A DNA stretch of 63,738 nt, counting the filler, from Circinaria calcarea (Eukaryota): NCBI GenBank assembly GCA_051942165.1. It is 11 parts of 11 records of this genome, joined end to end, with 100 filler letters (N's around TTAATTAATTAA, not from the genome) between each part and the next. Parts side by side here need not be neighbours in the genome. Positions count along the whole stretch, not along the records: positions 23,247 to 28,952 come from JAVECS010001815.1; 10 more parts are not named here. One strand, 5' to 3'. A program made the translations under genes and the position numbers. The notes beneath the pieces were generated by a model. The model saw nothing but the letters and a program-made list of their open reading frames with translations, was not told the DNA's origin and ran no database searches. Shown here piece by piece: positions 24,546 through 24,820 of this stretch (positions within the stretch are counted from its first letter, which is position 1; each line of letters begins with the position of its first letter).

Positions 24546-24820
24546 ATGAAGCTCCACCTCTACTTTCTCTCCATTCTCCTAACGAGCATGATGGCTCTTG
24601 CCTATCCGACCCCCAAATGTGCGTTGTCTATTTCCTATCCACGGTTAATCCAACCCCGCTTACAAAAGCAGCAGCTGCAGCCTCCGAGTCGCTAGACGCC
24701 GACGAAGCCGTTGTGTACTCTGCAGAAGATGTGAATGTGTGGGAGAAGCGGCAGATGGCCGGGCTGGATGCGGATGAAGCGGTTGTGTACTCATCTGAAG
24801 ATGTCAACGTTTGGGAGTGA
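24546..24820 (+). CDS. Kex2-processed repeat protein (KEP), putative dikaritin RiPP precursor, ~73 aa; intron 24619-24671 (alternative in-frame acceptors 24668/24674/24680)
   Basis: Spliced product MKLHLYFLSILLTSMMALA-YPTPKSAAASES-LDADEAVVYSAEDVNVWE-KR-QMAG-LDADEAVVYSSEDVNVWE*: signal peptide, two near-identical repeats, KR site. Confidence 0.88.

Follow-up and report, generated by a model that had tools for sequence, protein, structure and literature searches.

A two-repeat, intron-split gene beside UstYa/DUF3328 oxidase genes in Circinaria calcarea: predicted precursor of a dikaritin-type fungal RiPP from a Tyr/Trp branch

Positions 24546 to 24820 of the window, i.e., of the whole 63,738-nucleotide stretch analyzed (filler included), hold what is, judged from sequence comparison, the predicted precursor gene of a dikaritin-type fungal RiPP from a Tyr/Trp branch of this class. 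On the plus strand, its first exon (24546..24618) encodes a signal peptide with a probable cut after Ala19, followed by five further residues, and matches the N-termini of homologues P0001 and P0003. A 53-base phase-1 intron, GTGCGT...CAG (24619..24671), placed by in-frame joining and by comparison with homologues, separates it from a second exon (24672..24820) comprising a short pro-stretch, repeat 1, Lys-Arg, a spacer, repeat 2, and the stop codon. Repeat 1 is the Ala form of the unit DADEAVVY-S-x-x-D-x-N-V-W-E (24695..24745, with Tyr at 24716-24718 and Trp at 24740-24742) and precedes the Lys-Arg at 24746..24751, a predicted Kex2 site; repeat 2 is the Ser form (24767..24817, with Tyr at 24788-24790 and Trp at 24812-24814). 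Taken as a whole, we consider it probable that the gene encodes a spliced, secreted, Kex2-cut precursor that would be cyclized by DUF3328 enzymes through its tyrosine.

The window is a series of contigs and not one locus. Spacers of the form N44-TTAATTAATTAA-N44 recur about every 5.8 kb (5716-5815, 11527-11626, 17337-17436, 23147-23246, 28953-29052, and on) and join size-ranked contigs of about 5.7 kb from a fungal genome of 31.5 Mb in 5512 contigs (G000). Because the contigs are concatenated, genes across a spacer are not true neighbors, and the precursor is contiguous only with positions 23247-28952, which correspond to the 5706-base contig C1815. A kinase, an ankyrin, and a second PF20684 gene (15462), which lie outside this interval on other contigs, were therefore rejected as gene neighbors.

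The main evidence for reading the gene as a RiPP precursor is the UstYa gene beside it. The 3′ part of this UstYa/DUF3328 oxidase gene, in four exons, occupies 23247..24038 on the plus strand (PF11807, E 5e-15), 500 bases upstream of the precursor, and encodes the HxxHC motifs HALHC and HSDHC, the second of which spans an intron. Contig C5272, which overlaps the end of C1815 exactly over 141 bases, supplies the 5′ part of the gene, including the start codon and the sequence for a hydrophobic helix. Walking further by such exact overlaps, with a single partner at each step, leads to C4784, which carries a second UstYa gene, and ends upstream at C4371, which carries an af470-like monooxygenase gene (L137 303-1258, minus strand; PF13826, E 2e-22) divergent from the first UstYa gene. 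None of 13 related loci has a match to the af470-like gene, whose part in the pathway is accordingly doubtful. Downstream of the precursor, a multi-exon gene for a Pth11-like membrane protein with a fungal rhodopsin domain (25821..27236, plus strand; PF20684, E 2e-30) is probably a cluster member, and beyond it a large, apparently unrelated ORF runs onto C3592. The probable cluster on the linked contigs thus has genes for an af470-like oxygenase, a pair of UstYa/DUF3328 oxidases, the precursor, and the Pth11-like receptor. Six-frame translation of C4371, C4784, C5272, and C1815, and of a portion of C3592, showed neither a tyrosinase or methyltransferase nor a transporter or peptidase. In the PDB, no structure of a relative was found for the oxidase exon, the best match having E 0.12.

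Over 18 aligned codons, the two repeats (period, 72 bases) show 10 synonymous differences and a single replacement, Ala/Ser (pS 0.83, pN 0.024; binomial P ~3e-6). A sequence-only reading of this DNA had described the differences as mostly synonymous with one A/S change and had seen in them selection acting on the peptide; the counts bear out both statements, and at the codon level the repeats are under strong purifying selection. Protein searches and an HMM search provided 10 homologous proteins, among them sequences from the lichen-forming ascomycetes Ptychographa xylographoides and Xylographa trunciseda, which together with the window give 24 repeat units, 23 of them in register. D, D-E-A-V-V, Tyr, Trp at +8, and Glu at +9 are invariant in all 23 units, Ser+1 and Val+7 (22 each) and Asp+4 and Asn+6 (21 each) are nearly so, and the variable positions are +2, +3 (nine residues), and +5. 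In the remaining unit of the 24 (P0013, short), Tyr is kept and Trp stands at +7, an x6 spacing. Loss of Tyr, Trp, or Lys-Arg among homologues had been named beforehand as an outcome that would count against the reading; the two aromatic residues are conserved in 23/23 units, and Lys-Arg follows 13/13 non-final repeats. The acidic motif DADEA, to which a leader or recognition role had been ascribed, is likewise fixed across the repeats of the family.

The HMM search gave 15 matches, seven of them within the family and three in wider subfamilies (P0016, P0017, and P0021); the other five, long repetitive proteins, were judged to be chance matches and dropped. Pfam gave no match for the precursor, and Tandem Repeats Finder missed its repeats. 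The best ESM Atlas score for the precursor, 0.85, was to unnamed fungal clusters and is a lead only, and a metagenome alignment search with the precursor gave 598 pattern matches, none of which was confirmed.

Under the proposed pathway, the intron would be spliced, as comparison with homologues strongly suggests, and the 73-residue preprotein would enter the ER; from what is known of the family, Kex2 would then cut after Lys-Arg to release two near-identical units. The two DUF3328 oxidases of the cluster may recognize the fixed acidic DADEAVV as their handle on the peptide and link Tyr to another residue by oxidation, two oxidases making one or two oxidations possible; once peptidases had removed this handle, the macrocycle would be secreted in an Ala and a Ser version. 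A role as a secreted defense or signal compound is proposed. The acidic handle has a known look, since the available part of Le Marquer et al. 2019 (PMC6339444) includes "DADAATXYV[A/V]D" among the conserved KEP motifs; this motif 3 of Pezizomycotina Kex2 repeat proteins shares the DAD-x-A-x-x-Y opening, but it lacks Trp and is predicted only.

If the Trp eight residues downstream were the partner, the ring would span nine residues from Tyr to Trp and enclose a loop that tolerates change. This is our favored choice, held tentatively, because Trp+8 is invariant, stays in register across changed loops, and has a spacing that follows the oxidase subclade; given a Tyr-based ring, it would carry about half the weight. 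Speaking against a universal x7 spacing are the one x6 unit in 24 and the closest paralogue cluster of the same genome (C1120), where Trp is at +10. As regards the chemistry, UstYa-family enzymes have a dicopper site and use oxygen (PMC12186524, in the part available), the dicopper nature of DUF3328 oxidases coming from published work on asperipin-2a, and the accessible text of PMC12797325 describes DUF3328 cross-links as in general aromatic to aliphatic, with biaryl links the work of P450s. A link to Trp C-beta would be compatible with both a Tyr-Trp ring and an aliphatic-carbon linkage. The same pathway could also close another ring, from the Tyr oxygen to a nearby aliphatic or beta carbon, for instance that of a flanking Val, in which case the Trp-Glu end may serve as a follower that anchors the peptide in the oxidase before being trimmed away. 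We regard this as possible, though not as the likelier ring: described dikaritins (ustiloxin, phomopsin, and asperipin-2a, in the source texts available) use Tyr ether or Tyr-to-aliphatic links, Val-Val precedes Tyr in 23/23 units, and N-V-W-E-K-R resembles the single charge-flanked aromatic residue that, according to the same portion of PMC12186524, serves plant copper cyclases as a binding anchor and not as a ring atom. However, a V-V-Y-S core would be very short, and the Tyr-Trp spacing tracks the oxidase subclade, as expected with an enzyme-set ring size.

That last point comes from the wider family of DADE-type precursors. Searched genome-wide, the pattern D[AS]D[DE][AE][VI][VA]Y gave eight matches on five contigs, every one of them with a UstYa gene, and the reversed pattern, used as a control, gave two; PF11807 itself had 71 matches on 36/5512 contigs. 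Trp follows Tyr by 2, 8, or 10 residues in 5/5 DADE-type precursors of the genome, a pairing that is unbiased because Trp is absent from the search pattern. Besides the window gene, these are the intron-split Tyr-Ala-Trp precursors (Trp at +2) on C883 (L032 907-1329, minus strand), with three cores, and on C830 (L042 9143 on, plus strand) and C832 (about 2600-2850, minus strand), with one core each, and a single-core precursor on C1120 (L068, motif at 3450) in which Trp at +10 is followed by Tyr-Tyr. The three Tyr-Ala-Trp precursors are probably paralogues; each lies among UstYa genes and an O-methyltransferase gene, and they have relatives in Pleopsidium flavum and Annulohypoxylon moriforme. 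A protein of Circinaria calcarea was also found to be 99% identical to a paralogous precursor of the genome. The C1120 unit, a paralogous one, additionally holds a close UstYa relative and the closest Pth11-like paralogue.

Farther afield, the HMM recovered precursors, Beauveria BBA_09878 being one, that have Tyr-x7-Trp around a loop of unrelated sequence, and a metagenome pattern scan that demanded Tyr-x7-Trp returned 49 loci, six of which are fungal precursors. The other 43, apparent chance matches to unrelated, mostly bacterial proteins, were dropped. The spacing in these distant relatives is partly built in, as the pattern demanded it and the HMM rewards it; their neighbors were not selected for, the loci having been picked on the precursor alone. 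These DSDEAVVYP...SWVD precursors (Beauveria bassiana BBA_09878/EJP61176.1, L092, L093, L096, L104, L116, and L130) share the handle, the Tyr-x7-Trp spacing, and the phase-1 intron with the window gene, and the metagenome loci share its oxidase clade, but they differ in the loop, in having up to three UstYa genes, and in their O-methyltransferases and MFS transporter. L092, L093, and L116 combine two or three UstYa genes with an MFS transporter; O-methyltransferases occur in L092 and L093, and a PF20684 gene in L116. The precursors of L093 and L116 have one exon per repeat, with duplicated introns between.

For the last exon of the window oxidase, the closest relatives outside the genome are in L092, L093, and L096 (60-66% identity); its two own-genome paralogues on C1120 and C3961 fall in the range 65-73%, and the rest reach at most 40%. 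All six oxidases form a clade with support 86/89 in a tree of 41 rows that had only 79 columns and whose key node falls under the starred threshold. The Tyr-Trp spacing follows the oxidase subclades, being x1 beside the C883, C830, and C832 enzymes and x7 or x9 beside members of the window clade. At the sequence level, orthologous clusters appear to retain Tyr-x7-Trp but swap the loop, C1120 being the exception. Three short contigs, C3961 (L022), C5157, and C3667, carry close paralogues of the two cluster oxidases; they suggest a second, fragmented copy of the cluster type, for which no precursor was found.

A linear, pheromone-like Kex2-processed peptide (KEP) that is not oxidized, the UstYa genes then acting on another substrate, is an improbable reading of the same gene. 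According to the portion of PMC9769878 available, many KEPs yield linear, barely modified peptides, some of them ending in Trp, and a receptor-like gene adjoins the precursor. On the other hand, 5/5 DADE-type precursors of the genome and the larger metagenome loci examined lie among UstYa genes, and no rival precursor was found on C1815, C5272, or C4784 for those enzymes to act on. The window sequence also differs from alpha-pheromone KEPs in that QM-AG-LD follows Lys-Arg, with no XA/XP Ste13 dipeptides in register, no MF_alpha or Cys/WxW pheromone core, and no Pfam match; an ESM Atlas row for MF_alpha (0.80) is a lead at best.

A cyclized, secreted precursor, the preferred reading, calls for splicing, and the sequence-only reading had noted both a repeat-bearing frame that is not secreted and a signal peptide at ATG 24546 joined to the repeats through a GTGCGT...AG intron. 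The first is readily seen, the repeat frame being open from 24467 to 24820 with no signal peptide, and the second gains support from the homologues. The exon that begins at ATG 24546 has 24 codons and encodes a basic N-terminus, a hydrophobic core (9-residue Kyte-Doolittle mean reaching 2.2), and, as judged by eye, Ala-x-Ala at residues 17 to 19; without splicing, its frame meets a stop at codon 50. The donor GTGCGT lies at 24619, and the in-frame AG acceptors that had been predicted do exist, although they number five (24668, 24671, 24674, 24680, and 24695) rather than four. Of these, 24671 is the best, since it is the first CAG past a TTAAT branch-like site (24645) and leaves eight residues from Lys24 to the first DADEA, the same as in the annotated homologues P0001 and P0003. 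Exon 1 shares 12/24 residues with the N-terminus of P0001 and 9/24 with that of P0003, with PTPK at the same place in both, these two proteins being NCBI gene models and so themselves predictions. In P0007 and P0022, two intron-blind gene calls from a close relative, a single frame runs through the intron stretch, whereas the window needs a shift; inferred from the proteins, the stretch measures 24 bases there versus 25 in the window, and such a non-triplet length difference between conserved flanks is compatible with an intron. In addition, a phase-1 intron after a signal exon of 20 to 27 codons gives an in-frame product in 9/9 DADE-type precursors examined (five from G000 and four from metagenomes, with the phase not imposed), one of these loci also allowing a phase-0 model. 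We thus infer strongly that the precursor intron is spliced and that the preprotein would enter the ER. It is very improbable that the gene is unspliced and its frame from ATG 24617 gives a small cytosolic peptide or is a decaying remnant: the open frame and a donor and branch site that are not the commonest consensus forms speak for this, but the one-base difference, inferred from protein, in P0022/P0007 breaks the unspliced frame and leaves the spliced one intact, the signal exon is present in annotated homologues, and the repeats are under strong purifying selection.

Hardly credible is the earlier proposal that the inner Glu-Asp, like the ED that precedes the ustiloxin and phomopsin cores, is a processing signal freeing a four-residue core VNVW, which would be without Tyr: ED is present in both window repeats, but it occupies +3/+4 in only 6/23 units of an alignment that contradicts the idea, its Glu position also taking K, G, S, V, D, T, N, or R and the residue after it being Ala in 17/23. 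By analogy, the counterpart of the acidic run before the ustiloxin/phomopsin tyrosine would be DADEAVV and not the inner ED.

The Pth11-like gene next to the precursor belongs to a recurrent association. PF20684 genes are present, among the matches listed, on 11/36 UstYa contigs versus 1.66 expected from size-rank-matched draws, and none of 20,000 such draws reached 11; the count comes from one genome, and the UstYa contigs are not all independent, some being fragments of a single cluster. As a control, PKS contigs carried PF20684 in 4/35 cases versus 2.4 expected (P 0.22, among the matches listed), and the direct comparison of UstYa with PKS contigs was not significant (Fisher P 0.08, among the matches listed). 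Genome-wide, PF20684 has at least 165 matches, 150 of 313 candidates having been scored and 150 of the 165 being among the matches listed. On the same basis of the matches listed, 4/5 DADE-precursor contigs carry it, and the nearest paralogue of the window receptor (58%) is on C1120, beside a near paralogue of the window oxidase. PF20684-type genes also occur in other gene clusters, of which there is one example (PMC7099791). Pth11-like receptors dominate lichen GPCR repertoires according to a preprint whose available part mentions neither RiPPs nor DUF3328 (bioRxiv 10.64898/2026.06.16.732702). The enrichment beside UstYa genes hints at a signaling role, and it is conceivable, though unlikely, that the mature peptide is the ligand of the neighboring receptor. 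Less likely again is the fuller proposal that DADE-type clusters are self-contained units of signal and receiver, with a Tyr-Trp macrocycle whose ring size (x1, x7, or x9) would be set by the oxidase subclade and an orphan Pth11-like GPCR as its receptor; if true, this would amount to a modified-peptide signaling system of filamentous ascomycetes, expanded in lichens. Pth11-like receptors are mostly orphans and make up the largest GPCR group of these fungi; were the receptor link real, the peptides would become candidate ligands for them.

Dikaritin precursors carry a signal peptide and Kex2-separated repeats and are cyclized by UstYa-family enzymes, usually via Tyr (available parts of PMC6514808, PMC9233826, and PMC9769878), the class-defining enzyme being a clustered DUF3328/UstYa gene with two HxxHC motifs (PMC12048977, in part). 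A signal peptide, Kex2 repeats, a DUF3328 gene with two HxxHC motifs, and a conserved Tyr were all found here at the sequence level. The window gene thus resembles ustiloxin (UstA/UstYa/UstYb), phomopsin (PhomA), asperipin-2a (AprA/AprY), and victorin in its signal peptide, its KR-separated repeats, the acidic run ahead of an invariant Tyr, and the adjacent DUF3328 genes, and it resembles asperipin-2a in that no tyrosinase was seen on the linked contigs. It is unlike them in having only two repeats, a unit different from YAIG, YVIPID, and FYYTGY, Val-Val between the acidic run and Tyr, an invariant Trp at +8, a Pth11-like neighbor, and a lichen host. With DADEAVV-Y-S, no ED directly before Tyr, and no Ile at +2, it is not of the ustiloxin/phomopsin ED-Y-x-I subtype. 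Clusters of that subtype include a tyrosinase and a methyltransferase; neither was seen on the linked contigs, as far as the upstream walk reaches (C4371). The epichloecyclins (GigA/GigB/GigC/KexB) likewise combine a symbiotic fungus, Kex2 repeats, and a DUF3328 cluster, with DUF3328 ring closure on a conserved Tyr, a longer loop, and a seven-residue ring (available portion of PMC10540207); in that portion, however, their ring has Tyr as its C-terminal residue, with a follower that is trimmed, whereas here Tyr is N-terminal of the variable loop, and no methyltransferase or kexin gene was seen on the linked contigs.

A Tyr-Trp link itself likely has a precedent in the asperigimycins of Nie et al. 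2025. These are heptacyclic, and their core is reportedly built from Tyr and Trp by DUF3328 oxidases, six in number, whereas two were found in the cluster described here. The asperigimycins are cited, in the accessible part of PMC13608438, as a fungal RiPP with a benzofuranoindoline core.

The architecture described here is standard; the branch is uncharacterized and fairly widespread. In openly readable full text, we found no description of the repeat family or of the UstYa-Pth11 link, and subscription literature on DUF3328 chemistry or Aspergillus precursor types could hold the type. A motif search of the supplements of PMC7329392 (accessions only) and PMC6339444 found nothing, figures and picture tables being outside its scope. 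Within the available part of PMC7329392, a survey of 1461 genomes, the nine KEPs attributed to B. bassiana ARSEF 2860 do not include EJP61176.1, though a related type may be among the sequence logos there. A 2025 survey of 111 lichen genomes counted 987 RiPP clusters and, in the portion available, states that no RiPP has been characterized from Lecanoromycetes and reports no repeated precursor in two shared clans (Parmeliaceae), which it calls a mystery (PMC12048977). In the fragmented genome described here, precursors are easily recognized if the gene may be tiny, split by an intron, and limited to one to three cores; it holds five of the DADE type and at least four repeat precursors of other kinds. 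Beauveria bassiana also has a member of the family, so study is possible in a cultivable fungus, and a Tyr-Trp ring of nine residues whose loop tolerates change would, if true, extend the known chemistry of DUF3328 copper oxidases.

On other contigs of the window, a minus-strand ORF (18891-19799) encodes repeated CxxC...CxxC-H-x-R-CxxC zinc-finger-like units and a plus-strand one (30167-33613) a long, hydrophilic, repetitive protein rich in His, Gly, and Thr; neither has a Pfam match. Elsewhere in the genome, Kex2-repeat precursors lie beside UstYa genes on C1070 (L046 2879, minus strand), with four long units ending in YLDYFH, on C253 (L054 1935, minus strand), with a repeat ending in Gly-Trp, and on C1887 (L059 4701) and C3542 (L065 1564), with seven and nine short units containing EDAVTYPDSY.
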